Part shown: one piece after another, positions 5,300 through 31,950 of the stretch
Numbering within the stretch: position 1 is the stretch's first letter
How the letters are laid out: each line of letters starts with the position of its first letter
Source: Nemertoderma westbladi
Lineage: Eukaryota; Animalia; Xenacoelomorpha
Assembly (NCBI GenBank): GCA_032718475.1
Contig: JAUCBJ010000713.1
Coordinates: 1-52,354 of the forward strand
Reading direction: 5' to 3'
DNA: 52,354 bases
Made by a program: the position numbers and the translations under genes
Notes under the pieces: model-generated
Seen by the model: the letters and a program-made list of their open reading frames with translations, nothing else
Database searches by the model: none
What the model was told of the DNA's origin: nothing

Positions 5300-7230
5300 G
5301 TCTCTCGTTCCCTCGTCTTGTGTAGCAACCATCAATTCGTTGTTCAAGTGATTTAGTCAGTGTCCAGGTCTCACCCCCGTATAAAAATACACTTTCCACT
5401 GTGGCTCGAAAGAACTTGGTCTTCAGGTGCCTGGAGAGTTCTGATTTCCAGATGGTATCCATTTTTGATAGAGCTACCCAAGCCTTTGCTTTCCTAACTT
5501 CTATGTCCTTTTTCGGTTTTAACTTTGTAGGCTATCTTAAGATCTTCTCTCTTACAAGTAACCTCAGAGTTTTGCCATGGCACATACTGTTTTCGTTTAG
5601 GTTTCTGGGGGATATGCCTCTTAGCTGATTCCTTGTGGGCTGTTATTATATTCTGGTATATTGAATCGGTGGATTGGTCTTCATCCATTGACTGAAGTGC
5701 TTCAAAGCGGTTTTGAACTTCTACTGTATAAGCATCCTTTACAGCATTGTCAGTTCTGAGTTTCTCCCAGTCATAGTTGATTTGCTTGCTTGTCCTGGGT
5801 TTGCTGGCTCTCAAACTGAGTCTGATCTCTGCAGTCACAATTCTGTGGTCCGAACCAATTAGGTTGAACGAGCTGTATGCCTCGCAGTACTCCTCTACGG
5901 GAGTCCATGCTGGGCTCTAACTGCAGAGGACACCAAATCTCTGGATGGCACATTCACAAGAATGCTACGCCGGGTTCATTGTGTCAAGTACAATGCACAC
6001 ATCTCCAACCAGACACTATATAACATTGGAGGTGTCTCATTGGTTCCCCCAAGCTTGACACTAGAACAAAATCGCCTCCGCTTTGCAGGACATTGCTTTC
6101 GCCGTGAGGACCAGCCAGCGCATAATCTTGTACTTTGGCAGCCTCATGGAGTGAGTAAGCATGGTGGACAGCCCATGACTTTCTTGAGACGCATCTTAAA
6201 GGAGACTGGCCTTAAAGATGCGGATGATCTAGCAAATGTCATGGGTGATAGGGAGTTGTGGCGGTGCAATTTTGTTGACAAGCCGGCACAGCATTCTTAA
6301 AAATGCAGCTGCAATGCAGCATGCCGATCCTAGTAGTAGTATGCCTCGCAGTTGATCATGCTATTTCTCCACTTTTTGTTTATAAGGATGTAATCCAGTT
6401 GTGCTTTGGTTCCATTAGGGTATTGAAAGGTCCATAGCTCTTCCCCTTACTCTTTTCGAATGTGTTGTTTGTTGGTATCAATTCACATTCTTCCATTAGG
6501 TCTAAGAGTAAGTACCAATTTCTGTTAGAACTGGTGTTATAGGTGTAACCCTTGATGTCTTCTGGGCCAATTTGCGCATTCAGGTCAACCGCAATGACTT
6601 TAACATTGTGTTTCGGGATGTCCTTAATAAGTCCAGTCAGTTCTTCATAAAACTTGACTGCTTGTTCTGGCTCTGATGCATTGGTTGGACTGTAGCAACA
6701 TATAACTGTTGTCTTGGGATTCCCATCAAATGTTGCGATCATATCCCTGGAATTTATAGATTCGATGTTGTTTAAGGTCTTAAGTGCAAATGGGCTTAGC
6801 AGAATTCCTACTCCACCAATTGATGCATTGGCCGAGTTTCTTACTGCTGAGCTTGTTACTAACGTCCATCCATTTCCAATGTCATTGTACTTCATGGCAG
6901 TGTCTTCATGACAAATCCGATGTTCTTGGATGCAGATGATGTCGATGTTATATTCCATTGCCAGAGCGACCATGTCACCCTGTTTGCTCTGTGCTTTCAG
7001 CGTGCGTGCGTTCATTGTAGCAATCTTTAGTGTCTTTTTACATTTCAACAGGTTGGTTCTTCTTTCTTCTCTGTCTTCTGTTCCAGTAGCCAACTTATCG
7101 ACCTCAGCCTGGTGTACCACGGAGGGACGCGGTCCTTGTTGACCCGGGCGACGACCGAGCCGGTATTTCTCCTGGAGGGTTCTCATACTCATATCTTTCA
7201 GTTGCGGGGTTAAACCGCTTGTGGTCGCAA
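5300..7230 (-). mobile_element. RTE-clade LINE remnant A (APE endonuclease plus internally deleted RT end), interrupted by a younger insertion
   Basis: APE motifs IATMNARTL, IICIQEHR, GGVGILLS, CYSPT, DLNAQIG. Linker ORF at 5494-5838. RT C-terminus FRATVESVFLYGGETWTLTK at 5274-5462. Confidence 0.85.
5889..6338 (+). mobile_element. 5'-truncated RTE LINE 3' end with target-site duplication
   Basis: Encodes RLRFAGHCFR...LVLWQP...DRELWR and ends in a (TAG)n tail. Flanked by the direct repeat gtatgcctcgcagt at 5875-5888 and 6339-6352. Confidence 0.9.
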
Positions 7231-7231
7231 C

Positions 7232-8810
7232 TCGTAGCATTCTTGTGAATGTGCCATCCAGAGATTTGGTGTCCTCAGCAGTTAGAGCCCAGCATGGACT
7301 CCCATAGAGGAGTACTGGAACTACTGCTGCTCTAAATAATCGGACCTTAAGTTTCCGATTAATTCTCGGTGACTTCCAAATCCTGGAAAGCCTATTCAAG
7401 GCTGCCCATGCCTTTCCCTTACGTATTCGAAGGTCCTCACCTGACTTCCGGATCCATGATCCCAGGTAACAGAAGTCGTCCACATGCTCAAGCATACCAT
7501 CCTTTGAGCTTATGCTCATCCGATCAGAGACTTGCTGAGGACTTTTAAAGTTAACTGTCAGAATTTTGGTCTTTCTGGAGTTAATAAAAAGACCAACACT
7601 AGAAGCAGCATGTTCTAATGAGCTGAGGAGCCGTTGGGGTCCCTCTAATGATTCTGAGAATACTCCAAAGTCATCAGCAAAGTCTAGATCAGTTAGGTAC
7701 TTGGCAGGATTTCCTCGACTTCTGGAGCCAGTAGGTGGAGTTACCATCACCCCATCATCATTATGATGATCTAAGGATATAGTAGAACATAGTCAACCAC
7801 AATAATGAACAAGAATGGTGCAAGTGTGTCTCCTTGGAGGACCCCCCATAACACTTCAAATGGTTCTGTGTCACCATCAACAGTAGACACAAATGTTGTC
7901 GAACCATCGTATACTGATCTGATTGCTGCAATAATTTCATCAGAAATCCCATATAATGAAAGTATGCTAAACATACGTGAGCGAGAGACTGAATCAAAGG
8001 CCTTGAAGAAGTCAACAAAGATAACAGCCAGATGCCTGTCTTTCTTTTTTGATAACTCTTCAATTATCCTTCTAAGTGCCAAAATGGGCTCCATGGTCCC
8101 ACGACCTTTACGGAACCCATTCTGATTTCCACGGAGCAGTCTCTCAATGGGATCCCTGATGCGATTTAATAGAATCCTATTGTATAGCTTTGCAGCAATC
8201 GAGATCAATGAGATTCCCCGAAAGGAACCATAGAGTGTTAGGTTGCCCTTCTTGGAAACTGGCACCAACTTATTTGTTTTCATTTCTTGTGGGACTCTTG
8301 TTGTTCGGTACATGTCTACTATGATGGGATAGATGAGCTTTAAACACTCAGCTATTTTAAAGACCTCAGGGGGAACACCATCTACTCCACTGGCACGATT
8401 GGTCTTAATGCTCTTTGCAGCAGCCTTCACTTCTGCAAAGGAGATATCGCCAATGGGAATATCTGGGAGTACAGACTCAGACACTTTTACTTCTATAAAG
8501 TTATCAGGCAATACCCTGTCATTATTGAGGAGCTTTTCAAAGTGGGCCTTCCAACCATTGAGGCGATCGGCTGGTGATTCAGCCTTAACCTTGGTGGTTA
8601 GTTGGCTTTTCCGCCCAGTAAGCAGATTGATCGATTTCCATGCCTGGGGTGATTGCCTGCTGTCGTCAGCATCATTGATGGCATCAACCTGTTGGTTTAT
8701 TAGCTCCTGTAGATTAACAGAGTACTGCCTGTGTGAACAGTGTTCAGGGACCTAGATGCAGCCTTAACTGCATTCTTGGCCGCTGTAGTCTGTTTGAATC
8801 GGGACATTCT
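7232..8810 (-). mobile_element. RTE-clade LINE remnant B (reverse transcriptase)
   Basis: RASGVDGVPPE, FRGISLISIAAKLYNRILLNRI, NQNGFRKGR, FVDFFKAFDSV, GVLQGDTLAPFLF, LDFADD, FCYLGS. Frameshift near 7760. Confidence 0.9.
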
Positions 8811-9444
8811 TTACTGCGTACCTATCTGGGTATCTATCCCAAATATTATCCATTACTGGTATTACGAAAGTTAATCAATCAGCTAGAAGAGTTGTATGTT
8901 TATTAAATTATTTATCTAAACGGAACATTGCTTTAAACATTGTATTTATTTTTACACTTTGAAGTGGTGCAGGTGCATAATGTAGTAAATGGTAGTGGTA
9001 GAGCGGCTATAGAGCACCCGCATCGATTGGAAGAACAGGCGCAGAACAATTACAAGATATATAGTTTTAAGGATCGAAATTGGGGCAATGGATGAGACGC
9101 CAGGATCCGGTATCAGTTTATCATTGATCGCCATCCAACCAAACTTGTTAACAGCCAACAGTGGAGGTGCAGGATCATCAGCAGCTCTCCACAAAAGAAC
9201 TTGCTTACGAGCCCGTTTTACATGTTGTACGGCGGCACTCTGTGTGGGGGGAAGGTTGAATACTTTAGGGTGTTGCTTCTTTGAAGTGAATAGCCTATGT
9301 CGAAGTTCATTCAGAGTATCCGATATGCCACCACCATAGATAGAGGTGTAGTTGTAAATTTACAGCACCCATTCCGCATAATTTAATGGATTTCAAATCT
9401 GACTTCGAAATGCGAGGAAAAGATATGTAATTTGGAACTCCTCC

Positions 9445-10705
9445 TGTAAAAGCTTCTGTGGGATATAACTGGCCCCTTTTGCTTCGCAATCCAGTTTCCC
9501 CCCAGGCGCTGGAATACTCTAAAAAGGTTCTCTAACTGTATATATATTCCCCTCGCCCGCAAGGTACCGTTACAGGTGTTTTAACGGACATAAAAGTCAT
9601 TCTGCTATATACGTGTTTTGGCGGACATGGTAAGGCAAAAAACCTGCAATGCACCAACTACCTTTCACAGCTTAGCCGTGATGATTCATATTACGACATC
9701 TAACAGCTGGTTGCTGACATGGAAACAGCCATTGGACGCATGGTTCTTTGTTTGGCTTGAGCCAATCAGAGCGATTTTTCCTGTCGACGTGTAGCTTTTC
9801 GGCCGATCATAAGGAGAGTGTTCAGTCTTACTGTTTTTACTTGATACTTTGTTGTTATTGCTGTCTAAGCCAGAAACACCGGCTCTAGAGCACCGGCTTT
9901 TTGGGAAGAACTCTAGTAAAACTGCTTAAATTATCGAAAGTATAAACTGTTACCAAACTAATCTCACTAATCGAACGAACTCACTAACTCACTTAATTTA
10001 ACTGCATTAATCATATTGTTTGTACTGTTATTTACCGTCAGTTATTAATTGTACCTATTTGTTGATAGAAATATTGCTCTTTGGATAATACGGATAAATC
10101 ACCCAAATTCCCAATTTTCTTGATACACTACAGGTTAGAGAGACCGGCTATACATAACAATTGCGATTTATATTAATGTGGTGTGTATTGAATCCAATGT
10201 TATTTAGCAGACCCTACGTGAGTCAATTGCTGCTCTCTTTATGTGTGATCAAATATACTGACGGTCGGCAGAATAGTGTGTATGATTGTGATTGGTAACA
10301 AAGTATTTCCTAAAGAATACGCTTTATACTTTAATCATAAGCGGTATCGTTGCGTTTTAGTATAAGTCTTAGTTCTGTTTAAATAGATAAAGCGCCACGT
10401 CCTAAAGGAACTGTTAATATTTCCCGAAAGCCAATAATATCTGTCAGGAATTAATTATTAACGATCTATCGAATAATACAGTAAGTTTACGCTGCAACCT
10501 TACACTGCAATAATAAAATTTAAGCATCCGAATTCAGCCTCCCGGGTGTAGATCCATCGGGTGAATGATCGCGCATGGGCTGACTTCGGCTAATGTTTTG
10601 TGTATTAGCATAAAATATTGTAGTATGCTAAATGTGTTTTAATTAACTAAAAGAAATATAAATTTTGGCAGGTTAAACTGCTAAAGGTCTTCAAAAGCGC
10701 GAACA
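9445..10705 (+). repeat. 5' LTR (TG...CA)
   Basis: Starts tgtaaaagcttc and ends gcgcgaaca. Contains a CCAAT box (~9763), an Inr-like ttcagt (9821) and AATAAA (~10512). Confidence 0.95.
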
Positions 10706-10718
10706 GTAACAGTTTATA
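10706..10718 (+). other. Candidate self-priming primer-binding site
   Basis: gtaacagtttata directly follows the LTR and is the exact reverse complement of tataaactgttac at 9941-9953. No TGG-type tRNA PBS is present (first TGG is ~57 nt downstream). Confidence 0.6.
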
Positions 10719-11054
10719 GTCTTATTGCAGTAGGCAATAAGGTTGCAAAATACCGTAGTGACTGGTAAAACTGAACCGGTACTTTGTAGGTCAGTAGGCC
10801 TAACTGTCATCACCGGTACCGGTACTGCTGTACAAGTACATTTAGTATTATTCGATTTGATTATTGTATACTGGTAGGTCTTAGTACTTAATCAGGGACT
10901 GCAGCCCTGAATTTTTATTGAGATTTTACCTATTTCTGTCGGTTTTATTTCCTAGTAGGCTAATATTGAGCAGAAGGCGTGTGACCCTGCTCAGATTGTT
11001 CAGATAATTGTAGGCTGAGCTGCTGTCTGACTGTTGTTGAGTTTGGAGAGATTA

Positions 11055-11575
11055 CGGCGTGTGTAGAGTTTGTCTGATAAAGTGCCGTTAGTAAGTTGGG
11101 GCAGCCATATGCGGTAAGGTCAATCCCCTCTTAAAGAATAAGTCGTACTACCGTGTTAGAACGCATACTAACTAACAGTTTCAGAGTCTGCATATACTGT
11201 AGTTTATCTAGGCTTGATCGTAGTCTGCCAGTGTTTTAGCCTGAGTTTGTTTGTGTGGTCTGTTCAGGTACCGTAATAGTTATTACTTAAATATTTGTAG
11301 GCTGGATTGTTGTCTAGCTATTTTTAGGTCTGAAGGGATTGCTGCGTGTGTAGAGTTGGTCTGATCAAGTGCCGTTAGTAAGTTGGGGCAGCCATAAGCG
11401 GTAAGGTCAATCCCCTCTTAAAGAGTAAGTCGTACTACCGTGTTAGAACGCATACTAACTAACAGTTTCAGAATCTGCACATACTGTAGTTTGTTTAGGC
11501 TTAATAGTAGTCTGCCAGCGTTTGGTTTGTATTTGTTTGAGTATTCTGTACGGGTAGCGTAATATTTATTATTCA
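11055..11575 (+). repeat. Tandem duplication with a ~287-bp period in the element leader
   Basis: The block gcgtgtgtagagtt...agtgccgttagtaagttggggcagccat...gtagtctgccag begins at 11057 and again at 11344. Confidence 0.9.
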
Positions 11576-12881
11576 GAGTTTATGCGATTATTCGCAACAT
11601 TCATGTCCCCAAGTTTATTCCTACAGTAATTGTGCTTGTTATACATACCGTTATAGTTAAACTAACCCCGGTACTACATCAGGGCTGCTTGGCGTAGGTA
11701 AAGACTGACGACTTTGTGCTTCGGTCACTCCAGCAGATGCCGTGGTTCTTTTAACTGTTCAAGTATATTTAACTACTGATTATTTGTTATACCGGTACTT
11801 GTACCTAATTTAGGGTTTAGTGTACAGTGCTTTCCGAAGTAATTAGTGTAGGCAGTATATTTGTGTTGTAAAGTGGTTGATAGGCACATTCGTTAGCTCT
11901 ATTAGCTTCTGGGTAGGAACAATCCGTGATACATAACGTAGTACCTATAGCGATACGGTTATAGGTCGTCAGGCGGTGGTATTTTCCTATCTGGACAGTA
12001 CAATATATTTACTACTTATTATTTCAAATACCGTAGTACCCTGTCCGTTGTAAGAACCAGAATTCTAACCCTTTGTTAGGCTGGTTTGTAGACTTCCTGT
12101 AAAATTACCCTAAAAATTTCGTACGTAATATTTTGTTGTGTTTAATTAGAGAATTAATCTCACCCGTATCGTAAGTAATTTGTAGTATTAAGTAACTTAG
12201 GTAAATTAGAATTATCAGTTTTAGTGTCAAATAAATAGCACTTCACTGAGAGGCGTTCAGCTTCTGTGTAGTGACTCCCCCAGAAATAATAACATTTATT
12301 TCAAATATTGACAAAAACCCATATAAACGGGTATATAAATATTATAAATCAAATCAAACGATTTATAAATAGTAGGCCTGTCATACAACAACTAGGTCTT
12401 CATATCAGTTGGACTACTGCTTAAATAACGGTAATAAAGTAAGTTAAAGTAACCAAGTAACCCTAAAATATTCAGAAATTCAATTATTCTAAAATAATTG
12501 ACATACCGGTATTTACCATAGGCTTATTATATTTATTCGATAAATTTAGGCTGAAATCATACCGGTACTCTGTAATTAATTCTAGTCCAGAATTATACTT
12601 ATATACTATAAGTGTAAGCTGTATACCGGTATTCACGATAGGCCTATTATATATTTATATATATCTGTGCTAAATTTATATACCGGTACCCTGTGACAAA
12701 CCTAGTTTACAATACTTATATATATATTATAAGCATACCGGTATTCTAATATATTATATATATATCACGCTACACTGAGCAGCAGTATCGGTAATTAATT
12801 ATTAGGCTAACAGTGATACTGAATTACTAGACTTACTTTAGCTGTATTTATAGCCGTAGGCATTCAACTGTGTAAACAAAC

Positions 12882-15800
12882 ATGTCTGACACAAAAAGGG
12901 CACTGTCAGATAGTCTTTTGGAAGGTGTTAGAATGAGTCGTCGACTTGGACAGTGTCTTGAAAGGAGAGAAGACAGAAAAGAAGCGGAAAGAAAAGTAGC
13001 AGCGACAGAAGCAGAAAGAAAAGCGGCAGAGGCAGTGGCAGAAGCAGAACGGAAGACGTCTGAAGCGACTATCCAACTAGAGCTGGAAAACCTTCAGGCG
13101 AAACAAGATTACTTGAAGAAACAAACCAGAAGACTACCTGTGCCCAGTAGGACTGTTCCCGAGTCCGAACCCGTCCTGGACGCCGAGCGAGGTATCAAGA
13201 ATTTATCACCCGTCGTCTCTCGCTCGCCCGCTACTACGTTGGCGACTCCCGCTTCGGCGGTTGAGTGGGTAGCTGAGGGACGACGGGAGATGGGTCTCCT
13301 GCTCGAGCAGCTGAGGGAACACTGTTTGTGCTCCTCTCAGCAGGTCAGGGAAATGGAAGAGACTGTTCAGCAGCTCAAGGGAACAGTAAGGGAAAGTAGG
13401 TTAGAGTTGCAAAAAGTGCAGCAAAGTATCGCACTAGAATGCGACAAATTAGTCAACCTACAAAAGGGAATACCAATAACCCCTGTAACAGTGTGTCAGC
13501 CTGTTAGGTCTGAAGTATTACATGCGCAAGGTGTGGAGCCTACACGCATCTATACTGCTAGTGAAGTAGAAACTCCTATAGCAAACCCTATTAAGGGTGA
13601 TTATACGCCTGTTGTTAATGACATTCCCAATAGACCTGATAATAATCCGAGAAATTTATATACCGATAACTCGATATTCAATAACACGATGGCCCAAGAA
13701 AGTTTTACGCGTCAAATGGCTAGAACCGAAGCCCGTCAAGCGGTAAAGGTTGGAGAGATAGTCAAGTTTAATGGAGATGAGATGAAATGGTTACCTTTTA
13801 ATGAATATTATAAAGATAACATACAGAACTCTGTGTTATCCAACGGAGAGAAACTTAGATTCCTCATCGAGTGCTTGGAAGGACCTCCCAAGTCAATGGC
13901 GTTAAAATTTATTGGACATCCAGATGGATTAAGACAAGTTTGGGATACACTAAACATCAGGTATGGTAATAGGAATAACATAGCTAGGTATTTATATGCG
14001 AAATTAATGGCCCCCCGAAAGTTTCTTAGCAGCGGGATTATAGAGTTTTCCGATGAGATTCAGGAGATCTGTAGACAACTAGATTGGTTAGGTAAGTCTC
14101 ATGAATACCAGAATTCTATGGTTGTAGGAGCCTTAGCATCTACTTTGCCCAAGGGTGGAGTAGGTACACGCTGGGACAAGAAGGTGTTATATACGATGGA
14201 ACAACAACAACGAGACCCTACCATGGCTGATCTCATGTCATTCTTGGATGGCGAAGTGAAATTACAACTCCTAAAGCAATCCAGAGAGAAAACACCGGAA
14301 AATAAGGTAAGTGAGAAACCCGTTTCTAGGAGAAGAGTAACACCGGTGTGTTATACTGATGACGGCGAAAGCCAAGCTTCTCAAGAAGAAGACAGCGGGA
14401 AAGACACCGAGAAATTTTACTATGTTAACAAGACCTCAAAGGACGTAAGTAAATCTAAAGCTCGAACCCATGACAGGAGAGAACAGGTTGCTAAGACTCC
14501 TCTTCAGTTTCCTAACAGAGTACACGGAAGAAAGCCCGAAGAAAGAACTAGAGTGCATAACGTCACCCAAAATAAGGTGAGTAACATTAAACCCAACTGT
14601 GCGCTGTGCGACGGGCCCCACCGTTTGAGTGCGTGTGCGGAATTCCTAAAGAAATCCTTGGTAGACAGACGTGAAGTCATGTGGGATAAGCGGTTATGCT
14701 ACAATTGTCTCAGACGCGGACACCAGCGGCGAACCTGTTACTCCGACATAAAGTGTGCAAAGTGCGGTGCGAAACATCACATCTTGTTACAAAGTGAATT
14801 CGAACGAAACAGCCCGAGTCAGGTAAGTGAGCCCAAATCACATGTCCAATTCAGTGATGTGAACGACACTGACCAAAGTTCTGAGTGGGAAGGATTCTAT
14901 ACGGACGAATTCTCCGACGCCAACGAATCCTGTTACCTAATAAATACCGCAGTGTATCGAGCACTTACTTACGAAAAGGACACCGACAATGAGTTCCCCC
15001 CAACTACCTTTGACAAACAACCATCTTGGAAAGTTCCAACTTCCAACATAGGAATAAGAGAATTTCCTGTAGTGCAAGTGAGAGTTCATGGTCTCTACAA
15101 GAGTTACATAGTGAACGCCCTACTTGACTCCGGCAGCACAGGAACATTCATCGATCAAGAACTAGCCGAAGATATCTTTGCTGGACAACCCAAGTTCCGG
15201 ACTAAATTGAATATGTCAGGAATTATGCAGGTTTGGAAATCTACCCTAACGGCAGATTACTATGTAGGTGAGTTGTCCACCCCCCAGGATAAATTAGGAG
15301 CACAAAGTATAAGGTCAGTAAAAATGGTGGCTATAAAGAACTTCGCTACTACCCAAGCAGACCTTTATAACTGGGACGAGGACGAGTGCATCCAACATCT
15401 TGAGATACCTCGATTCCAAACCGATTATCCTGGAGTGCAAATCCTCATCGGCCAAAACGCGCATGAGGCGCTCGAGACATTGGAGAAACGGCCTGCTCAA
15501 CCGCAGCCATTACAAACTTATGCGGTAAGAACTAGAGTAGGTTGGTACTTTACTGGCCCTTCCCGCAGAACTCTTGAAGAAAGATTGCCACAAGACCGGC
15601 TACTTCAAGTAAAGGATTGGGAAGAGGGGAGCAGTGAAGTGGACGAACCCACTGAGGTAACACCATACTCCTCAGATAATGATGATATTAACTCCAATGT
15701 AGATCAATGGAGACATTGCCTTGGGACGATTAATCCAGCCGACATCGCTTCCAGGGGAGCAACTCCTCAAGAACTGATAGATACTCCAGGCTGGTTAGGT

Positions 15801-16031
15801 GGATCCGACTCCTTAAGTAAAGAAGAAGAAGAATGGCCTCCTCATCTTACCACGGCAGAGAGTAGACAGGCCAAGGGAGCGGAGAAACTAACACAACAAC
15901 TCAATCGCCCAGCTGGTCGTTTATGTTTACTGGAAAGAGACCGAAAACTGTCCGGAAACTATGGAAGGCAAGATACTCTTCCTACGACCACTTCCCTAAT
16001 CCGACAAATATCTAGGGACTCTATAACGTAA
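12882..16031 (+). CDS. BEL/Pao gag-protease polyprotein with vestigial pol fragments (1049 aa)
   Basis: N-terminal coiled coil, DUF1759-like gag core (KFNGDEMKWLPF...EKLRFLIECLEG), three zinc knuckles (CALCDGPHRLSAC, CYNCLRRGHQRRTC, CAKCGAKHHILL) and protease ALLDSGS...ILIG...TRVGW. Followed only by WRHCLGTINPADIASRG and NRPAGRLCLLE. No YxDD or DDE motif. Confidence 0.92.
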   Translation: MSDTKRALSDSLLEGVRMSRRLGQCLERREDRKEAERKVAATEAERKAAEAVAEAERKTSEATIQLELENLQAKQDYLKKQTRRLPVPSRTVPESEPVLDAERGIKNLSPVVSRSPATTLATPASAVEWVAEGRREMGLLLEQLREHCLCSSQQVREMEETVQQLKGTVRESRLELQKVQQSIALECDKLVNLQKGIPITPVTVCQPVRSEVLHAQGVEPTRIYTASEVETPIANPIKGDYTPVVNDIPNRPDNNPRNLYTDNSIFNNTMAQESFTRQMARTEARQAVKVGEIVKFNGDEMKWLPFNEYYKDNIQNSVLSNGEKLRFLIECLEGPPKSMALKFIGHPDGLRQVWDTLNIRYGNRNNIARYLYAKLMAPRKFLSSGIIEFSDEIQEICRQLDWLGKSHEYQNSMVVGALASTLPKGGVGTRWDKKVLYTMEQQQRDPTMADLMSFLDGEVKLQLLKQSREKTPENKVSEKPVSRRRVTPVCYTDDGESQASQEEDSGKDTEKFYYVNKTSKDVSKSKARTHDRREQVAKTPLQFPNRVHGRKPEERTRVHNVTQNKVSNIKPNCALCDGPHRLSACAEFLKKSLVDRREVMWDKRLCYNCLRRGHQRRTCYSDIKCAKCGAKHHILLQSEFERNSPSQVSEPKSHVQFSDVNDTDQSSEWEGFYTDEFSDANESCYLINTAVYRALTYEKDTDNEFPPTTFDKQPSWKVPTSNIGIREFPVVQVRVHGLYKSYIVNALLDSGSTGTFIDQELAEDIFAGQPKFRTKLNMSGIMQVWKSTLTADYYVGELSTPQDKLGAQSIRSVKMVAIKNFATTQADLYNWDEDECIQHLEIPRFQTDYPGVQILIGQNAHEALETLEKRPAQPQPLQTYAVRTRVGWYFTGPSRRTLEERLPQDRLLQVKDWEEGSSEVDEPTEVTPYSSDNDDINSNVDQWRHCLGTINPADIASRGATPQELIDTPGWLGGSDSLSKEEEEWPPHLTTAESRQAKGAEKLTQQLNRPAGRLCLLERDRKLSGNYGRQDTLPTTTSLIRQISRDSIT

Positions 16032-16574
16032 TAACATATGGAGTGGGCGTGTGACTATATCATTTTATATTTGTTTTTATTTTATATTTATGTATGTATT
16101 ATTATGTAATTTTATTATAATCGTTTTCTTTAATTTTATTTAGTAGAATGTTATTTTAGAATATTTGGTAAATTAGTGCAATATATTAGTGTTTATTACG
16201 TATTTAATTACTTACAATATATTTAGTGCGACGGCAAGAAGTAATTATTTTCTCTTTCCTTACTGTCCGTATTATATTATAAATGCGAGACTATAGTAAG
16301 ATGACATGTCAGTACTTCTTAAAGTACAATAAAGCCACTACTATATTTAAGTATTATTGGTAGGCAGAGTATTAGGAATGCAAAGTTCAGATCCTCGTGT
16401 CTCGGCTAAACCAAGCTCTGGGTAGACCTTGGAAACGACTTGCCTCTTCACACTGACATTGCTTCGTGCGATATTGCTCTTCTATCTTATAACAAATAAT
16501 ACATATAGTAGCGTGATGTCCCTCTAACAGTAGCGTAAATCGCAAATAAATCTGTTAAACTTTTGACCATCTGT

Positions 16575-16850
16575 AATTCTAGTCGATTAAGATATCGTGG
16601 CACCCACCGATATACTTGAAAGACAAATTCTAGAATCAGTGGTTAACGTCCCCAGACAAGTTCTGGAATAAATCGGTGCCCATCCTAAATATTAATTTAA
16701 TATTTATTAAAATCTGTAAAATTCAGATCCGTTAACAATTCTAGTCGATTAAGATATCGTAGCACTTACCGATACTCTTAAAAGACAAATTTCATAGAAT
16801 TAAGGATCCTATGTCCCCAGACCTGCTCTGGAATCAAATTGTATCAATTT
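16575..16850 (+). repeat. Diverged ~110-bp direct repeat pair (period 162)
   Basis: aattctagtcgattaagatatcgt...aagacaaatt...gtccccagac...tctggaat starts at 16575 and again at 16737. Confidence 0.85.
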
Positions 16851-17462
16851 AACATCAAATAATAAAATTCACGGGAATAAATTTAAATTCATATTCGAAT
16901 GAATTTCATAAATTGTCATTTGTGCAATTTATAACATTCCCAAAATTCCAGTAATTAATAGATCATGGGAGCGGAGATTCATATTGAGTGTACTAGAGTG
17001 CGAGAATCTCCAATATATAGTCAATAGCCGATAAAATTTATAAAATCATGCATAAAGAGGGTATTGACAACTAAAGAATTACTATTAAATAACATCCCAG
17101 ATCTGTATGCATGAGAATTACCCTAATTCTACCGCTAGTTTTCCATAATGTCACCATGGCAACACCCACGCTAGAATTAGAAGCAAGTTAAAGGAACAAT
17201 AAAAAGCTTGCCCCATTGCGTAGCATAAGAGTATATATAGCGCACTATTAGTATCCAAGGATACATAGTAATAACGTGACATTCTGGAAGACACTGACTA
17301 ACGGACAAATGGCATGCATGTGTGCAGTAAGCAATGATTGTATGGAATTTGTGCGTTTATAGGTGAATGTTACTACTAAAGTGTGTTTACAGTAGCTAAT
17401 CGCAATTGTAAAATAGCCCTAACTCTACCGAGATAACCTCAAGTGGATTCAAGCCTTTGGGA

Positions 17463-17607
17463 CGGACAGTGGTGGGACTTGTGCCGGTTATCGTTGTCGT
17501 GCTGTTGCTACATGTTGGCGTAAACACCGCGACAACGGTACATCGGCGCTGAGAAACCCACTGTCCGGGGGCAAAAAGCCTAGTAGGCAGCGACGCCCGC
17601 TTGCCTA
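17463..17607 (+). other. Predicted long GC-rich RNA hairpin plus small hairpin
   Basis: cggacagtgg (17463-72) pairs with ccactgtccg (17558-67). Inner stems are gtgccggt/atcggcgc and tcgttgtcgtg/cgcgacaacgg. Second stem taggcagcg/cgcttgccta at 17584-17607. Confidence 0.75.
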
Positions 17608-17650
17608 AAATATTAGCTTATATTGATATTAACAAACTCAGATAGCAGAT

Positions 17651-18049
17651 ATGACGGAATTGATAGAAGATGACCTTGGTATTAGAGAGCGATATACTCT
17701 ACCTTTACAAGCGTTTGTGGATAGCTTGATACGCGGTGAAGCCGATCCGACTATTACTGAGGACGATGGTCGTTATATCGAACCGCCGATGTCCCAGGAA
17801 CAACTTACGCGTGAAGCGGACTATAGAAAATTCACCGCTCGCTATACGAATCGCAATGGTACGTATATGGACTTCCTAACTACCGGCCATCCTATCGATC
17901 TACATGATACGGACGATGTATACACCGAAAGGGAAATGGTTCTATTTAAATATCATACCCAGCGGAGTCGTAACGATAAACCGAGAATAGATCACGAAAA
18001 TTATATTCGTAACAGACTGGGAAGACGAACCCATATGTTTAGAATCTGA
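17651..18049 (+). CDS. Extra ORF X1 of the LTR element (132 aa, unknown function)
   Basis: ATG start, coding-like composition, no recognised motif. Overlaps the X2 reading frame. Confidence 0.6.
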   Translation: MTELIEDDLGIRERYTLPLQAFVDSLIRGEADPTITEDDGRYIEPPMSQEQLTREADYRKFTARYTNRNGTYMDFLTTGHPIDLHDTDDVYTEREMVLFKYHTQRSRNDKPRIDHENYIRNRLGRRTHMFRI

Positions 18050-19100
18050 AGAGATTCAGCCCCCCACGTCTCGGAGTAGCGATAGCGACTACATATTGGA
18101 ATGGTATCAAGGTCCACAGTGTCTCACTGCGTACGATTATCGCCATGCCAACTATGTTTCTAGACAACGTTGTCGGCTGTGCGCATCGAGAGACCATATT
18201 ACGTCTATGGACACCAACGATCTTTGTTCCTATTTCCACGAGCAACCGTCGATGGAAATCTATTGTGCATATTGTCGGCTTAATAATTTGCACATTTTTG
18301 CTGTCTGCCCCCAATTTATGACTCAATGCCATCATTGTCAATTAAAAGGACACGCCAGCTTTGATTGTCCCTTTAACCATGATTTAGAGAGCGTAGATGA
18401 AATGATTGTACTACGTTATATCAGAGCTTGGGAAGCGAACGCTGATTTACATTGTGATTCACGCCATCGCTATTATCCTGGACGCGCCTACGAAGGAGTT
18501 TATGCGTTCCATCCATATTTGTTTGCCTCCGTCGAGCAGAAATCGCGCCTATCAAGTTACGAGCTACTGAAGCGCGTCGGAGAATGTATTTCAACCAAAT
18601 TCGTACGCAAATTTCTCAGGAGTGTTAATCCTAGCGACCTTCATTCCTATAACTTAATCAATCATATCCGTCAGGATCCGGACTATGGAGAATTGTTTGT
18701 TAACTCACACCCTGAGTTACAGGAAGTATATCGACGGCCTTACGAATACCGAGCCCGCGAACGCGAGTTGGAAAGAACCATTAAACCAAGGAAGTTTCTA
18801 ACTGCCTATGGTCCACCCACGGCCCTCGTTCAGACCACTCGTAAAGGACCCGTAAGAGCGGCTGTCTTGAAACGAGCTCTCAAAGCCGTTAGACCCCTCT
18901 CCCCGGACGTTGATGTCAATCAACCCGGTACTTCGACCGGCGGATATACCGATCGCAATCCCATACCTTCTGATGCAATCATATTGCACCCTTCACCCAG
19001 GAGTTATAGCCCTCCTCGTAAAGTGGCTCGCCCCAAAGAGAAAAGGACTCTTGCTAGCTTTAAAAAACTGCGTAAACGCCGTCCGCGCAAGAAAGACTAA
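17991..19100 (+). CDS. Extra ORF X2: multi Cys/His zinc-finger protein with a basic C-terminus
   Basis: Frame is open from 17991 (ORF track start is TTG at 18096). Motifs CRLCASRDH, CAYCRLNNLHIFAVC and CHHCQLKGHASFDC (CCHC). Ends in an NLS-like KKLRKRRPRKKD. True start uncertain. Confidence 0.75.
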   Translation: MTKIIFVTDWEDEPICLESEEIQPPTSRSSDSDYILEWYQGPQCLTAYDYRHANYVSRQRCRLCASRDHITSMDTNDLCSYFHEQPSMEIYCAYCRLNNLHIFAVCPQFMTQCHHCQLKGHASFDCPFNHDLESVDEMIVLRYIRAWEANADLHCDSRHRYYPGRAYEGVYAFHPYLFASVEQKSRLSSYELLKRVGECISTKFVRKFLRSVNPSDLHSYNLINHIRQDPDYGELFVNSHPELQEVYRRPYEYRARERELERTIKPRKFLTAYGPPTALVQTTRKGPVRAAVLKRALKAVRPLSPDVDVNQPGTSTGGYTDRNPIPSDAIILHPSPRSYSPPRKVARPKEKRTLASFKKLRKRRPRKKD

Positions 19101-19170
19101 CTGTTTAGAGTATTTACGTATATTAGAAACTGTGATTTTTGTATATTTATAGACTCAAATCCCATTTTCT

Positions 19171-19178
19171 GGGAGCGG
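19171..19178 (+). other. Polypurine-tract-like site
   Basis: gggagcgg immediately precedes the TG of the 3' LTR. Confidence 0.7.
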
Positions 19179-20439
19179 TGTAAAAGCTTCTGTGGGATAT
19201 AACTGGCCCCTTTTGCTTCGCAATCCAGTTTCCCCCCAGGCGCTGGAATACTCTAAAAAGGTTCTCTAACTGTATATATATTCCCCTCGCCCGCAAGGTA
19301 CCGTTACAGGTGTTTTAACGGACATAAAAGTCATTCTGCTATATACGTGTTTTGGCGGACATGGTAAGGCAAAAAACCTGCAATGCACCAACTACCTTTC
19401 ACAGCTTAGCCGTGATGATTCATATTACGACATCTAACAGCTGGTTGCTGACATGGAAACAGCCATTGGACGCATGGTTCTTTGTTTGGCTTGAGCCAAT
19501 CAGAGCGATTTTTCCTGTCGACGTGTAGCTTTTCGGCCGATCATAAGGAGAGTGTTCAGTCTTACTGTTTTTACTTGATACTTTGTTGTTATTGCTGTCT
19601 AAGCCAGAAACACCGGCTCTAGAGCACCGGCTTTTTGGGAAGAACTCTAGTAAAACTGCTTAAATTATCGAAAGTATAAACTGTTACCAAACTAATCTCA
19701 CTAATCGAACGAACTCACTAACTCACTTAATTTAACTGCATTAATCATATTGTTTGTACTGTTATTTACCGTCAGTTATTAATTGTACCTATTTGTTGAT
19801 AGAAATATTGCTCTTTGGATAATACGGATAAATCACCCAAATTCCCAATTTTCTTGATACACTACAGGTTAGAGAGACCGGCTATACATAACAATTGCGA
19901 TTTATATTAATGTGGTGTGTATTGAATCCAATGTTATTTAGCAGACCCTACGTGAGTCAATTGCTGCTCTCTTTATGTGTGATCAAATATACTGACGGTC
20001 GGCAGAATAGTGTGTATGATTGTGATTGGTAACAAAGTATTTCCTAAAGAATACGCTTTATACTTTAATCATAAGCGGTATCGTTGCGTTTTAGTATAAG
20101 TCTTAGTTCTGTTTAAATAGATAAAGCGCCACGTCCTAAAGGAACTGTTAATATTTCCCGAAAGCCAATAATATCTGTCAGGAATTAATTATTAACGATC
20201 TATCGAATAATACAGTAAGTTTACGCTGCAACCTTACACTGCAATAATAAAATTTAAGCATCCGAATTCAGCCTCCCGGGTGTAGATCCATCGGGTGAAT
20301 GATCGCGCATGGGCTGACTTCGGCTAATGTTTTGTGTATTAGCATAAAATATTGTAGTATGCTAAATGTGTTTTAATTAACTAAAAGACATATAAATTTT
20401 GGCAGGTTAAACTGCTAAAGGTCTTCAAAAGCGCGAATA
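19179..20439 (+). repeat. 3' LTR (TG...TA)
   Basis: Same length as the 5' LTR. Only two differences were spotted by eye: aagaaatata/aagacatata and terminal CA->TA. Confidence 0.95.
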
Positions 20440-20766
20440 CCTCCAGAGCTCCCTGTGGACGTCTGCAGTAACTCCATAGCTGTTGAGTGGGAGTCACGAA
20501 GACCATTTGGGGTAAATACATTTAGGTCAAAGTTATCAATCCACGCGCTAATTGGTTGATGGTTTTTGTTAAAATCATCCAAAAATCGCCAGATGAAAAA
20601 CCACGTTCTCCTGTAAATTTTGCAGCAGACTTTCTAAAACGTAGCACTTCATCATAGCTGGCAATATATCCTTGTGAATGTAAGAAATCTATAAGTTCCC
20701 GGCTTCCAAATAGATAATGAAGCTTTATAGCCATCCCAAGTGTTGTCTGGTTATACACTCCACTTA

Positions 20767-24653: not shown

Positions 24654-26423
24654 TCAGTGCATTGAATATGTGCTGGACACAAAGTCCACACATCTATGAA
24701 CATCATCATCAGGCCCCTGGTCTCTATTACCTGCCCCTCTATGTATATCGCTGAGAACATCAGGGAGTGGTTTTCCTTTCGTTTCCGGCAGAAACAGAAC
24801 ACCGATTGCGGCGGCCAAACACAAAACTCCGTAAAGGATAGGTGGAAGCGCTCGCCAACTGTGTCCGATGCTAATCAATGGGATTATCGCTGAAGCTATT
24901 AGCGATAATATCATAGAAGTCGACATCATTCTGGAACGGACCTCGGTCGGATAAAGTTCTATCGAATACGTAACCACCATGGCCAATCCGCAACTAATAC
25001 CAGTTTTTCCAGCCATAGCAACCGTTGTTTTTACCCAACCACCTGCGATATCGTCGGGGATCCAGGCAGTGGATAAACAAGAAATTCCAGTAAAAATCAA
25101 AGTTCCGCACATTGAAGGCTTCCGTCCCAGTCCGTTTTGCAAGAAAAATCCTATCGCGGAGCCGACAATTTCAGTTGCGCCAGAAATTATGTTCGTAACA
25201 AAAAAATCTGTAGACAGCGCTGATACTCCTAGGACAAGCCCATACCATGTAACTGAAAGGGCAACCCAAACAAGGCACATAATAAGAATACGTTTCATTA
25301 ATTCAAAATGATACAAAATCTTGTTCAAAATCAAATTGTTGTGAATTACTTTTGGTTTGCCTATCGAAGAGCTTTCTCTATATTGCGACGATGTTAAATA
25401 TCTAGTAATACCTCCTATAGTATCATCACCTATTTGTTTATTATTAATGCGAGCAATTTTCTGTATAACATTCAACGCTTGCTTCCATTTCCCTGTGGTT
25501 GCCAACCATCTTGGCGATTCAGGCCAGACAACATAGAAGAACAGACACATGAAAGGTAATAGACACTGAGATAAGTGAAAATAATACCATGGTAACCGTC
25601 GGAATATGTACGAACAGACAGTGGATAGCATCATGCCTACTCCAATAAATGCTTCAAAAGAGACACCAATAAAGGTTCTGTACTCATAGCCAACGAGTTC
25701 CATGGCCAGGATAGTCCCAATCATAAGGGGGGCTGAATAACTCATTCCCAAAACTATTCGTTGAAATATAAAATAATGTATATTTCCCGGGAAAATAAAC
25801 ATGAAGGATTGACCCACACTTTGCAACAAGAATGCGAGAAATATGGCTTTCTTCCGTCCCCATATATCTGAAATCGCGCTGAATAATCCAGCTCCTGGTA
25901 TTATTGCGAGAATAAATGCCGTTTTCGCAAATTGAAACTCTACATCCTTTTCACAAACGAAATTAAATTCCATGAGGTAGGTGTTTGTGAAGACGGACTG
26001 GTCAAATGACCAGCCATGACGACATTTGATTCGATCCTTATTTTCTACCTGAACATAATTGTTATTTTCAACATTATAGTCGTACATTAGGCAAGATTCT
26101 AAAACACCATCACCATCTTTGGGAATGAATTCTTCAATGTTTATTGATTGATTCTCTCCAAGTTTATCAACAATATACGAAACATCGCAGTGGTAACCGG
26201 TGTGCGCGCTAAGAAACACCATTTCCATGATCAGTAGTGTTGGAATTGACGCACATAATAACACAATAGTGCAATAAACAACAACCCATTGATAGCAGCC
26301 AAATGCACCTATGAGAGGCCAAATATCATCATAAGTGTGAATATGTTTATTTTCATCAACGAATTTATTATTATCTGATCCATTTCCACCTAATTGTGTA
26401 TCGCCATAATTAATTGTTTTCAT
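24654..26423 (-). CDS. SLC22 / organic cation transporter family MFS protein, intronless
   Basis: IGAFGCYQ, Cys-containing first loop (C..GWSFD), SDIWGRKK, ELVG..YR, PESPRWL, ELYPTEVRS, LPETKGKPLP. First ATG at 26423 (ORF track extends to a TTG at 26450). Confidence 0.93.
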   Translation of the reverse strand: MKTINYGDTQLGGNGSDNNKFVDENKHIHTYDDIWPLIGAFGCYQWVVVYCTIVLLCASIPTLLIMEMVFLSAHTGYHCDVSYIVDKLGENQSINIEEFIPKDGDGVLESCLMYDYNVENNNYVQVENKDRIKCRHGWSFDQSVFTNTYLMEFNFVCEKDVEFQFAKTAFILAIIPGAGLFSAISDIWGRKKAIFLAFLLQSVGQSFMFIFPGNIHYFIFQRIVLGMSYSAPLMIGTILAMELVGYEYRTFIGVSFEAFIGVGMMLSTVCSYIFRRLPWYYFHLSQCLLPFMCLFFYVVWPESPRWLATTGKWKQALNVIQKIARINNKQIGDDTIGGITRYLTSSQYRESSSIGKPKVIHNNLILNKILYHFELMKRILIMCLVWVALSVTWYGLVLGVSALSTDFFVTNIISGATEIVGSAIGFFLQNGLGRKPSMCGTLIFTGISCLSTAWIPDDIAGGWVKTTVAMAGKTGISCGLAMVVTYSIELYPTEVRSRMMSTSMILSLIASAIIPLISIGHSWRALPPILYGVLCLAAAIGVLFLPETKGKPLPDVLSDIHRGAGNRDQGPDDDVHRCVDFVSSTYSMH

Positions 26424-26894
26424 TTTATTTAATTGAATTGTAATATACAAAATTATTAATTGGAGAACTGAGCTACTATGCCCAACACGTAGTAAATGTG
26501 TCTAGTTTGAAGAAGAGAAGGTTACCCACCCTTCAAAAGTTGTCTGTAAATGAGATTGAAAGGAGGACGACACATAGGGCCGGAATGACAAGATTGGAGG
26601 AAAGTCAGACCTACACGGAACCACCACCATTTAATTGTATTTCATTAGTAAAATTCACAGAGCGGGACAGGCCAAAAATAAACAACACATAAATCAGGAT
26701 TAAATAATAGACAATGAGTTAGTGCGTTTAGAAGGATCTTTTTCTTAGTGACCAAAAAATAATTGAATATGAATAGTCGCGTACATTTCGGGCAACAGCC
26801 CTTTATCATCTCAATTCAGTTATTGCATGTGTATATAAGTACAGAACAAAACTACTACAGGACACTACTACAGGAGGTTATTCCTTACCGCTAA

Positions 26895-27419: not shown

Positions 27420-30400
27420 ATGGCTAAATATCCCACCCCAACGTTTTTGGATGTTAATGCAGAAGACCTTGCACTTGAATTTGGCGAATGGCGACAAGCC
27501 TTTGAGTTCTGGGCAGATGCGATAGACTTGCGTGGTGAGGGACAAAATAGACAAAAGCAGGTTGGGGCCCTTATGACCTGCATCGGTAAACAAGCTCAAA
27601 AGATCGCACTTCAGAATTTCAGCTATACAGATGACAGACCACGAACCCTCGAGAATTTATTGGCAGACTCTTCTCAGCTTATTTTGCTCCCCGGCGAAAT
27701 TTGCTTGTGATGAGACACCGCTTTATGTGTCGGCGACAACAATCTGGGGAATCTTGTGCCGAATATTTTACTACCCTCCGGCAGTTGGCGGGTCACTGCG
27801 ACCTTGATAGAGAGACACCTGAAACACGAATAAGGGATACCTTCATATGTGGCATCCGGGATGATGAGTTGCGGCGTCAACTCCTCCAGCAACCTTCTGA
27901 TTCCACTATTACTGACATTAGGAACCTGGCGGTTGCTTATGAAGCTGCCACATCTGGGCATAAAGAGTTGAGTACAGAACAGAAAAAAGAGTATTTTATA
28001 CTCCAGCATCCATTAGTGGTGATGTTTTGGCTGTCTCAAGGTCATTTTCTCCCCATCGTGCCACCACTGGTAAGTATTATGCTGCTGCTCCACTGGTTCG
28101 TGAACGTGGTATGGATGTAGCTAGGAATCTACCACAACAACCCAGTCAACCTTTGCCTAATTTTGTTCGTTCATGTCGTTTCTGTGGTGGTAGTCACCAA
28201 AAAGGCCACTGTCCAGCATATAATTCCTTTTGCCAAGATTGCGGAGTTCGTCACCACTTCCGTAATTCCCCAATTTGTAAATTTATTGTTTCAGTTTCTA
28301 GACAAGGCTTAGATCGGTATACACAACAGACTATGCGACATTCCACTGGTAGAGTTCACCAGGTTGAACACTTTCCCTCTGACCTCTCTGTGGTGGAATT
28401 AGATGAACCCTACGAATCCGATGGTGAGGTAACTGAATCAAGTTTATCCTATTATGATGTCAACACAGTTAACCTATATAAAATGGTAAATTCCACCCCC
28501 AGTCAACTTATTGAAAAAAACTTATGAAAATTGGAAAATATCACTTTTCGTATCAGGTCCTACATCTGGTCAGAATATCATCTTTCTTGTTGACACAGGA
28601 ACTTATCACTCTATTGTTCCAAGCAAATTTATTGGACCCAGCATAATTGAACCCTTGCAGGGTGAGTTGCTCGGAGGATTTATGTCTTCATCTTCACTGC
28701 CTATTATTGGCAAGGCAACAGTTCGATTGGCATTTGGCAAATGTGAGACAACATCTACCATCTTTGTTGCCAAGAATGCACCATTCGCTTTGCTTGGCCA
28801 AAGGGATATTGAAGATTTACAATTAGTCAGTCGAAACTTCAGTGAAAATAAACTGTATCCTTCAGGTAGGGAAATAGAAAACACTGCAGGTGCTAGTCCT
28901 CTAAACATTGTCAATGCATTCTTACCTCCAATGGATTCACCTGAAATTGAAATTGTACTTAAGCCTGGAATAGTTCCACTTCAACAGCCCCCGTGGCGCA
29001 TTCCCTTCGGCATAATCGAGGAAGTTAAAAGTGAGAGCGCTAAACTTTGCGATGAAGGTGTTATCGTTAAAGTTCCTAACGATGATCCACCCAGTGAGTG
29101 GGTTAGTCCCATGGTGATCACACGCAAACCCACTGGGAAATTGAGGTTATGTCTAGATCTACGTGCTTTAAACAAAGCTGCGGTTAGGACCCGTGTAATG
29201 ATTCCTACACCTGAGGAACTATTTGCTAAAGTGGAAGGTAGCAACTATTTCTCTAAATTGGATGCTTACTCAGGCTTCCATCAATTATGGCCCACTGAGA
29301 AATCATCCAGACTAACAACATTCGAATTGCCATTCGGTACATTTCGTTATATTCGCTTACCATTTGGTGTTTCCTGTGCACCAGAGAAATATCAACAGAC
29401 AATGGTTGATGTTATCCATGATATTAATGGTGCCATTGTCCTTGAAGATGACATCCTTATATACAGTGCAACACGTGAAGGCCATGATCAAATTTTGATG
29501 AAGGTTAAGCAACGTTGCATTGATCGCAATATTAAACTTAATGTTGATAAATGTGAAATTGGCAAAACAGAAATTACTTACTTGGGTCATGTCTTGTCTT
29601 CATCTGGACTGAAACCAGATCCAAAGAAAGTTGAAGCGATTTCAGCACTCCCCCCCACCAACAACTACTGCAGAATGTCGTAGATTTCTGGGAATGGCTA
29701 CCTATATCTGGCTAAATTTGTACCCAATTTCAGCACTATTTCATCACCATTACGACAATTATTATGAGGGAATGTTCTGTTTTCATGGACATCCACTTGT
29801 GACTCAGCCTTTCAGAAGATAAAATCTTTACTATGTGACTCCCCAGTATTGAAATATTACAATGTCAACCATGAAACCATGGTCCAATGTGATGCCTCTC
29901 CATATGGCCTTGGCACAGCTCTTCTCCAATGTGATCCATAAACCAAGCAAACATGGCCAGTAGCATTTGCTAGTAGATCACTAACATCTGCTGAGCAGAG
30001 GTACTCCCAGATAAAAGGGAGACATTAGCTATTGCCTATGGTGTTTTGAAATATAAACAATATCTTCTAGGACTCCATTTCACAGTCCTATCAGACCATA
30101 AACCCTTAAAGTCGATTTTCCTAAACCCATTAGATGAGTGCCCACTTCGGATTACCCGTTTTCTCATTCTTCTACAGCCATATTCATTCACAGTTGAATT
30201 TATTACTGAGTGGAAAGTCAAATCTTCTTGCAGACACATTGTCTCGTGCTCCAATCCCAGGTCCTAATGAGCAGCCAGGAAACCAACAGGCCTTGAACTT
30301 TGATCCCTTTGTTAATGTCATTCTCGAATCACGTTTTGTCAATATTCACCCAGTAGCTCAGGAAACTGGAATATGTCCAGAATTGTCCCCACTGGTTGAT

Positions 30401-31950
30401 AGACTGTTAGACAATTCGGATAACTTCGACAATATACCTTCACCATATTTAGGCAATATTGCTGAACTCTCACTGTTCTTTGTCGATAATCTTCCAGTTG
30501 TGATGCACAGCACCCGCATAGTTATACCGGTGTCCCTTCGATCTCAAATTTTAAAGTTAGCTCATGAAGGCCACCCAGGTATAACAAAAACTACCGAGAT
30601 ATTGAATTCCACAGTTTGGTGGCCCGGAATCACCAAGTCTGCCTCGCTATTAGTGAGCAATTGTCACCCATGTAAACTCTCTCAAGATTTACCATCGCCA
30701 CAGCCTATGCAACAATCTCGTATATTTTTACCATGGGAACGAATCGGGATTGATTGTGCTCAAATAGAGGGCACTAAATGCCTCACTCTTATTGATTATG
30801 GTTCTCGTTATATTGAAGCTACCCCCTTACCTTCTAATAGTTCTAAATCACCCTCCATAATTCGTCAATTGAACTTTATCTTCGCTCGATTTGGCCTTCC
30901 CAGTTCTCTGGTTGCTGATAATGCTGAGGAATTTCGTTCAAGCGCATTTTGGCAGTATTTAGTTTCACTTGGCTGCAAACTTGTTGAAATCTCCTCTAGA
31001 TATCCCCAATCCAATGGGATGATTGAGTGTCCTCACAGGGTTATTAAGAAGATGATGAATGCAACATCAGATGCCCAGAAGGATTCATTCAGTTCTCGTT
31101 TGTCAACTGTATTGTTCACTCTACGAACAACCCCTCACAGGGTGACAGGTGAAGTTCCTTCCCGAGTGCTCTACAGGTTCCTTGGATTGAACCTACAAAC
31201 CCAATTGCCACAAATTCCTCCCCCAGCCGAGCCTCCATTAAGGAAATATATAGAAAACCGTGAGCGCATCGTATCTGACTACAATCGCCGGCATCGATCA
31301 CAACTGTTGGATCCTCTTGAGGTCGACCAAGCTGTCATGGTGAAGAAGTACAATGGCCGAGGTTACAGCTATTTGGGACACCATGTTAAAGAAGTTCGCG
31401 GTGACAAAGTGATCATTCAACCACCTCATGGTGGCCCGCTGATTTCCCGCAATCGCAGATGGCTCCAGCCAGTACACCAAGCCCACTACCATCGGTTTGT
31501 ACCCCCTGCCCACAAACTTCCTCTTCTAACCACCCAGGCTCAACCTGAACTGGTTGTTCAGCAATCATTGCCCACGAATGAGTCTTCACCTGGCGTTCCA
31601 GATGCCCCCCCCCCCCCCCCCCCCCCCCACTCCCAGATGGCCCATTGGATATCACACAATGCCATTATCCCTCCCGTGTACGATCTGCTCCAAAATACTA
31701 TGGGTATGAAAACTAATACGATATTACCAGGACTTGACTCATTCTTTAGGTTTTACATCCGAACTTTATTGTTTGTATATGTACAGTTAGTTGTAGGGAA
31801 GAGAGAGAAAGATGATATATGTGTTACTTTCAGTTCGAAAGAAAGAAAGTAGTGTAGTATATACTACTGGTATTAAATAGGAGTTATCTGTATGTGTTGA
31901 TGGTCTGGTGTACTACTGATTATTATATACCGGTTACCGGCCACACTACA
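27420..31950 (+). mobile_element. Degenerate Ty3/gypsy (Mag-like) retrotransposon gag-pol
   Basis: gag (RRQQSGES...RIRDTFICGI; CRFCGGSH..CPA..CQDC), PR FLVDTG, RT (WVSPMV, LRLCLDLRALN, LPFG, LEDDILI, YLGH), RNase H (QCDASPYGLG, SDHKPL) and IN (HEGH..CHPC, GID, ADN, NGMIE). Several frameshifts and a TAA at 29939-29941. PPT-like 31795-31812 is followed by a TG...CA LTR candidate at 31813-31950. No 5' LTR was found. Confidence 0.92.

Follow-up and report, generated by a model that had tools for sequence, protein, structure and literature searches.

How a BEL/Pao-type retrotransposon without a tRNA primer-binding site (PBS) starts its minus strand is the question raised by the element at positions 9445-20439 (+ strand) of the window, the whole 52,354-nt stretch of DNA that was analysed. 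As the initial annotation had stated, BEL/Pao elements are described as tRNA-primed: the ICTV profile of the Belpaoviridae (PMC8742986) gives them an 18-nt PBS for tRNA-Arg or tRNA-Gly and tRNA-primed replication. No 18-nt tRNA-complementary site of this kind was found in the element. The self-priming suggested for this family at the outset gained support, both from the match of its primer site to a published sequence criterion and from distant families in which the same pairing is made with different letters. We put at about three in four the probability that the element primes its own minus strand with 9941-9953, with enzymes acting in trans and a cut near 9953/9954.

The boundaries of the element were set by self-comparison. 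The 5′ LTR (9445-10705, +) is 1261 nt long and bounded by TG...CA, and the 3′ LTR (19179-20439, +), also of 1261 nt, ends in TA and holds a second copy of the predicted primer at 19675-19687. Both are flanked by a 5-bp target site duplication (TSD), CCTCC, whose right copy (20440-20444) matches the left one (9440-9444) perfectly. The LTRs are 99.8% identical, with two mismatches (10655A/20389C and 10704C/20438T), the second of which is the single substitution that turned CA into TA; in a related locus (L055), TATA stands at the end of both LTRs. Given this identity and the perfect TSD, the element was copied recently with its present site and without a TGG. A short polypurine tract, GGGAGCGG (19171-19178, +), adjoins the 3′ LTR.

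Following a 2.2-kb non-coding leader (10719-12881, +) with a 287-nt tandem duplication at about 10995-11571, a gag-protease ORF of 1049 aa (12882-16031, +) is the only ORF of the element with BEL/Pao domains. On the same strand it encodes DUF1759 (PF03564, about 13767-14153, E 1e-13), three Cys-His knuckles from 14598 (aa 573, 606 and 625 of gag-protease), the protease motif LLDSGS at 15120 and, from 15705, a short C-terminal remnant of RNase H that is 47-51% identical to BEL/Pao protein matches. Reverse transcriptase (RT), integrase and most of RNase H are absent from this ORF and from the element, the order of pol being protease and then the RNase H remnant, with RT and integrase deleted. 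At 17633-19100 (+) follow two overlapping ORFs of 138 and 369 aa, counted from stop to stop, which encode CCHC-like motifs and a basic tail; neither matched a Pfam family or any of 71 BEL/Pao metagenome loci, and they are possibly an accessory nucleic-acid-binding gene.

In protein searches, gag-protease was 22-40% identical to BEL/Pao polyproteins, and no relative above about 40% was found. PF03564 was present in all five protein matches of gag-protease, alone or with PF05380/PF18701 in four of them, and both BEL-type RT motifs searched for were present in 75 of 154 protein matches. Scans of viral and metagenome contigs with gag-protease gave no confirmed match, and BEL alignments gave none against viral contigs. 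The initial assignment to BEL/Pao is thus borne out by the DUF1759 gag with its triple knuckle, the polyprotein relatives and the RNase H remnant, together with the TG..CA LTRs, the short TSD and the polypurine tract. Judged from its sequence, the element is a young non-autonomous BEL/Pao derivative, for which no partner that would provide RT was found. Membership of the Tf1/sushi group, which is defined by a Ty3/gypsy chromovirus pol with a chromodomain, was considered and rejected, the proteins being of BEL/Pao type, and any likeness to that group is mechanistic only.

Other features of the window were recorded alongside the element. A broken gypsy-type element at 27635-31852 retains gag-like, protease, RT and integrase pieces, and no LTR pair was found for it; fragments of a LINE-type RT with DUF6451 lie at 6380-8751 on the minus strand. 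An imperfect palindrome of 1.3 kb (41674-42990, 74%) and a near-perfect 91-nt hairpin (33961-34051) are likely fold-back or MITE-type elements. Single-ORF genes encode a WD40 protein (45950-46963, GC 54%), presumably BUB3-like, and an MFS transporter (24654-26501) that we take to be SLC22-like. A tandem array with a 43-45-nt unit and strong strand skew occupies 51295-52075.

The candidate PBS, GTAACAGTTTATA (10706-10718, +), lies at offset 0 from the 5′ LTR end, contains no TGG and is the exact reverse complement of the predicted self-primer at 9941-9953 (+), which starts with TATAAA, ends in AC followed by C and is not interrupted by an intron. Recomputing the pairing reproduced the perfect 13-nt match, flush with the LTR end and without a gap, that had first drawn attention to the site. 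Since the adjacent pairs are mismatched on both sides, the duplex ends exactly at the LTR border; it is A/U-rich, spans 750 nt and has an energy of −13.9 kcal/mol. The reported lack of a TGG-type tRNA site was likewise confirmed, the first TGG behind the 5′ LTR appearing at 10763, 57 nt further on. According to the part of Neumann et al. 2019 (PMC6317226) available to us, a self-primer is recognized by complementarity of at least 10 bases that sets in 0-5 nt behind the LTR, and the present match has 13 at offset 0.

Reverse-complement matches of 13 nt to the LTR were counted at one of 8443 internal positions, namely 10706-10718 itself, and at one of 41,299 flanking positions; when offsets 0-5 were permitted, none of 1195 sampled internal positions gave a match. 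Markov models put the chance of the match between 7e-5 (order 0) and 8e-4 (order 3, for which the training sequence was the LTR with the word in it), so the earlier estimate of about 2e-5 was somewhat too low.

Copies in public sequencing runs were examined next to the window. Part of the stretch was present in seven of the ten runs listed, and contigs of four were compared over 9400-11300: X1 and X3, from organism A (two studies), X4, from organism B, and X7, which covered only six of 30 bins. None of the runs listed is recorded as RNA, although X4 may be of that kind. X1 alone yielded 14,565 contigs over this interval; depth does not equal copy number, and the contigs point to many diverged copies in organism A. 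Contigs of X1, X3 and X4 cover the PBS site, and one X3 contig bridges 10688-10798, from which it departs by six letters and 11 gap positions. The 40 of 179 differences listed all lie outside the two 13-mers. The nearest listed difference, 10719 G>A, lies one base outside the duplex and makes up 99% of the depth in X1. A depth dip over the primer (9912-9975) reaches about half in X1 and X3 and 1.8 in X4, where it is strongest. Separately, an X4 contig returns to 10700 after 10748, with 35 other letters in between, which suggests that the segment of LTR end and PBS is duplicated in organism B. Contigs of three runs carry the site as the prevailing sequence, so it is not confined to this copy.

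These observations bear on the possibility that the match arose by chance, or that a fold-back rearrangement peculiar to this copy put it in the place of a tRNA PBS. Many LTR elements were read in the scan and A/T-rich words lift the chance up to 8e-4; against this, the site prevails in contigs of three runs under two organism labels, the element is young with no other PBS candidate at its LTR end, and the relatives described below follow the same principle. We regard such an origin as very improbable.

Relatives were collected with an alignment of eight polyproteins, which gave the 71 metagenome loci from the best 80 of 571 confirmed stretches. For 11 loci the repeat defined the end of the 5′ LTR, and 10 distinct loci remained once L023 was dropped as a duplicate of L026. 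An uninterrupted match to the LTR of more than 8 nt at the LTR end was found in none of the 11. In six of the 10 distinct loci, a site of 11-15 nt was the complement of an exon junction (GTAAG[T/C]..AG intron) within the locus's own LTR, and each of the six gave 0 matches in 806-876 null positions. With repeat-defined LTR ends, no junction match was found in L059, L066, L037 and L011; L066 became positive once its end was placed at a nearer TA/CA-type boundary. A looser scan took in the 49 loci whose upstream sequence was 150 nt or longer, the intron lying in the LTR or its region, and 21 of these carried a junction-complementary site of 11-15 nt; four independent controls gave 1, 3, 3 and 2 of 49. 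Uninterrupted matches of at least 12 nt in L001, L009, L014 and L028 did not lie at the LTR ends shown and were not counted.

Removal of four near-duplicates from the 21 left 17 distinct junction primers (L006, L012, L014, L019, L024, L026, L028, L034, L036, L044, L046, L047, L048, L051, L055, L062 and L066), with GT-AG introns of 75-423 nt. Their letters vary widely while the pairing is kept. The primer ends in AC in 13 of the 17 and in AC|C in 11, the same end as at 9941-9954, and the offset is 0 in four. Several of the 17 belong to related families, so they do not stand for 17 independent events. The initial annotation had made its proposal depend on complementarity being conserved in relatives: the pairing of LTR and PBS is indeed kept there with different letters, but it runs across a splice junction, and uninterrupted matches do not exceed 8 nt in the 11 loci with repeat-defined ends.

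The gag-protease of these relatives is only 20-37% identical to that of the element. In a tree built by a quick method (72 rows) the element sat on a long unplaced branch, and its protease scored 85 vs 40 bits against two motif-defined groups of unequal size (50 and 21). With no placement from the tree, the link to the junction-primer families rests on superfamily, PBS position and primer end. A splice-junction primer was also sought in the present LTR and gave no match over its three GTRAG donors; a 3-nt extension over the non-consensus donor 9789 was at chance level among 27 GT sites and is lost with the prevailing A at 10719.

The same relatives bear on priming at 10706 by a host tRNA fragment or another small RNA, the LTR match then being a trace or a coincidence. 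CUGUUA within the 13-mer resembles, as we assume, the anticodon loop of tRNA-Asn and was counted for this explanation. No TGG is present at the site, the LTR match extends over all 13 nt and stops at the LTR border, and the sites of the 17 relatives are too varied for one tRNA while each fits its own LTR junction. No tRNA gene was found in the 52,354-nt window. Although priming by half-tRNAs is known in Copia lineages, according to the available part of PMC6317226, we consider a host primer here quite unlikely. TGG does occur in L037 (245-260, offset 0) and in L059 (56-75, offset 1); these two loci look tRNA-primed, and BEL/Pao seems to have sites of both kinds, tRNA-type and self-type.

Folding was carried out with the PBS blocked. 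In all four windows, two structures were predicted and the PBS was left in a loop. The first is a 21-bp outer helix between 10493-10513 (+) and 10722-10747 (+), with −25.3 kcal/mol and pair probabilities mostly of 0.95-1.0; its energy was matched or beaten by 4 of 500 shuffles and 11 of 280 internal windows. The second is a U5 hairpin at 10663-10686 (+), just upstream of the LTR end, with pair probabilities of 0.86-1.0 and 0.43 for the outermost pair. A weak candidate for a third helix, 10566-10574 with 10697-10705 (+; 8/9 pairs), had a pair probability below 0.1 and was not significant, 31 of 500 shuffles being as low. For a three-duplex pretzel of Tf1 type, the central and outer helices are supported, and the inner helix is the one at 31 of 500 shuffles. 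Without constraint, ViennaRNA gave the primer duplex a probability of 0.58-0.67 in one of the five windows containing it, against 0.0 in each of the remaining four; the primer duplex crosses the outer helix and ViennaRNA cannot hold both, so the unconstrained fold is uninformative for the duplex.

One listed variant falls in the 5′ arm of the outer helix, 10508 C>T, and retains a G-U pair. The 5′ arm reaches two bases into AATAAA (10512-10517), in which 10516 A>C is common in the run contigs, and the 3′ arm is present only behind the 5′ LTR; on these grounds the predicted helix may limit early polyadenylation at the 5′ LTR. An outer helix is not general in the relatives, with 2 of 12 at 11 or fewer of 200 shuffles as low, and an Rfam search gave a single match at chance level.

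Where transcription starts bears on whether the primer would be internal or 5′-terminal. Two promoter candidates, both with an inferred function, lie upstream of it on the + strand: TATATATA at 9539-9546, 95 nt into the LTR, and CCAAT at 9762 with the Inr-like TCAGTC at 9822-9827 (9762-9827), which sits 119 nt upstream of the predicted primer. The latter is the Inr-like site placed at about 9824 by the initial annotation, whose expectation that it would make the primer internal now looks the likelier outcome. TATAWA 25-35 nt before the primer is absent here and in all eight relatives with a known LTR start. This, and the fact that junction primers must be transcribed in order to be spliced, favours a start upstream of the primer, which accordingly is probably internal to the transcript and not, as in Tf1, at its 5′ end. 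Given self-priming, we somewhat favour the internal primer; a Tf1-like 5′-terminal primer would be a distinctly less likely arrangement, and a primer that begins an exon behind the AG at 9939-9940 a less likely one still.

The primer itself begins with a TATA-box word that the initial annotation had not mentioned, TATAAA at 9941-9946, one of two in the LTR, and pyrimidine-purine Inr-like words follow 25-30 nt later. Were 9941 a TATA box with a start near 9966-9972, the transcript would lack the 5′ 13-mer. The partner of the PBS would in that case be the 3′ LTR copy at 19675-19687, on the same RNA or on one packaged with it; alternatively, a different primer would be used and the complementarity would act in circularisation or dimerisation. 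TATAAA is a common word, however, at 0.9 per kb in the window, and two other promoter candidates lie upstream. The junction primers of the relatives are A/T-rich, yet they are not TATA boxes and need transcription to be spliced, and a cut at the 3′ copy would presumably remove the R region needed for strand transfer. We consider a TATA box at 9941 unlikely, though it is the chief alternative to self-priming.

Self-priming with 9941-9953 is the reading that we prefer, and it would proceed as follows. Transcription would begin before 9941, the likeliest places being the Inr-like 9822-9827 and a point behind TATATATA at 9539, and the RNA would include 9941-9953 on its 5′ side. The outer helix 10493-10513/10722-10747 and the U5 hairpin would keep the PBS open, and 9941-9953 in the RNA would pair with the open site at 10706-10718, primer and PBS forming a pseudoknot. 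The RT-RNase H of an autonomous partner would cut near 9953/9954; with an internal primer, only this 3′-side cut would be required. Extension would copy 10705 back to 9954, giving a strong-stop DNA of about 750 nt that would jump to the 3′ R region. The family may be an intron-less form of the splice-junction primers of other BEL/Pao families, in which loss of the LTR intron, e.g. by copying an RNA spliced at the 3′ LTR, would have left an uninterrupted primer. More tentatively, and at somewhat less than even odds in our view, a large part of BEL/Pao may have swapped the tRNA for a primer cut inside its own RNA, mostly spliced from an intron, with this family as the intron-lost state.

If this is true, a self-primer requires neither splicing nor a position at the 5′ end of the transcript. 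Each of the three LTR superfamilies would then have acquired self-priming, BEL/Pao along a path different from that of Tf1. Self-priming has been demonstrated only for Tf1-type gypsy elements, and a BEL/Pao self-primer would correct the description at family level and would explain the lack of a tRNA PBS in many marine BEL/Pao elements. The absent tRNA PBS is treated here as a gap in the BEL/Pao family description, given that self-complementary sites occur in 21 of 49 coding BEL/Pao loci. With uninterrupted and splice-junction primers side by side, it becomes testable whether RNase H frees a primer from the interior of the transcript and whether turnover of LTR introns gains or loses splicing-dependent priming. 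Since organism A has many diverged copies, it may be possible to recover strong-stop DNA and the ends of native RNA from it.

Caenorhabditis elegans Cer7 has reportedly been proposed to carry its own tRNA-like primer, for which the literature search gave no confirmation. Self-priming in BEL/Pao was not found in the openly accessible literature searched; terms for primer sites had no match in PMC3118150, PMC6238403 and PMC554778, and the available parts of PMC8220671 and PMC3286476 held nothing relevant on BEL/Pao primer sites. The available parts of PMC6317226, PMC7175516, PMC10085805, PMC4600332, PMC5341516 and PMC3601003 report self-priming for Tf1/sushi, whereas for Tcn1 and the copia lineage TAR it is a prediction. 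What the present element would add, and in our judgement probably does, is a variant form of this known mechanism within a superfamily described as tRNA-primed.

The closest mechanistic likeness is with Tf1/Tf2 of Schizosaccharomyces pombe, Tj1 and the Tf1/sushi group, which, as far as the accessible parts of these sources go, share the absence of a tRNA site and an LTR-complementary PBS directly behind the 5′ LTR. In Tf1 the primer has 11 nt and RNase H cuts between bases 11 and 12 (PMC7175516, in part), and a three-duplex pretzel is required, in which the leader next to the PBS forms a helix with LTR sequence downstream of the primer, as predicted here (PMC10085805, in part). In contrast to Tf1/sushi, the present element is of BEL/Pao type, two of the three pretzel helices are supported, and it has no RT, so that a partner is needed. 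The plant lineages Tcn1 (gypsy) and TAR/Houba/Osr-1 (copia) show the same self-primer criterion in the part of PMC6317226 available, whose coverage of plant gypsy and copia lineages leaves BEL/Pao outside. With the Belpaoviridae of the ICTV profile, the element shares the DUF1759 gag, three knuckles, a DSG protease, an RNase H remnant, a 5-bp TSD, TG..CA LTRs and a short polypurine tract, and it differs from them in having no tRNA PBS. Nearest in primer-site design are the junction-primer BEL/Pao loci (L006-L068), which likewise lack TGG and carry a self-complementary site of 11-15 nt, 0-5 nt behind the LTR and mostly with an AC|C end; in those families, however, the primer exists only after removal of an LTR intron of 75-423 nt, whereas here it is continuous in the DNA.
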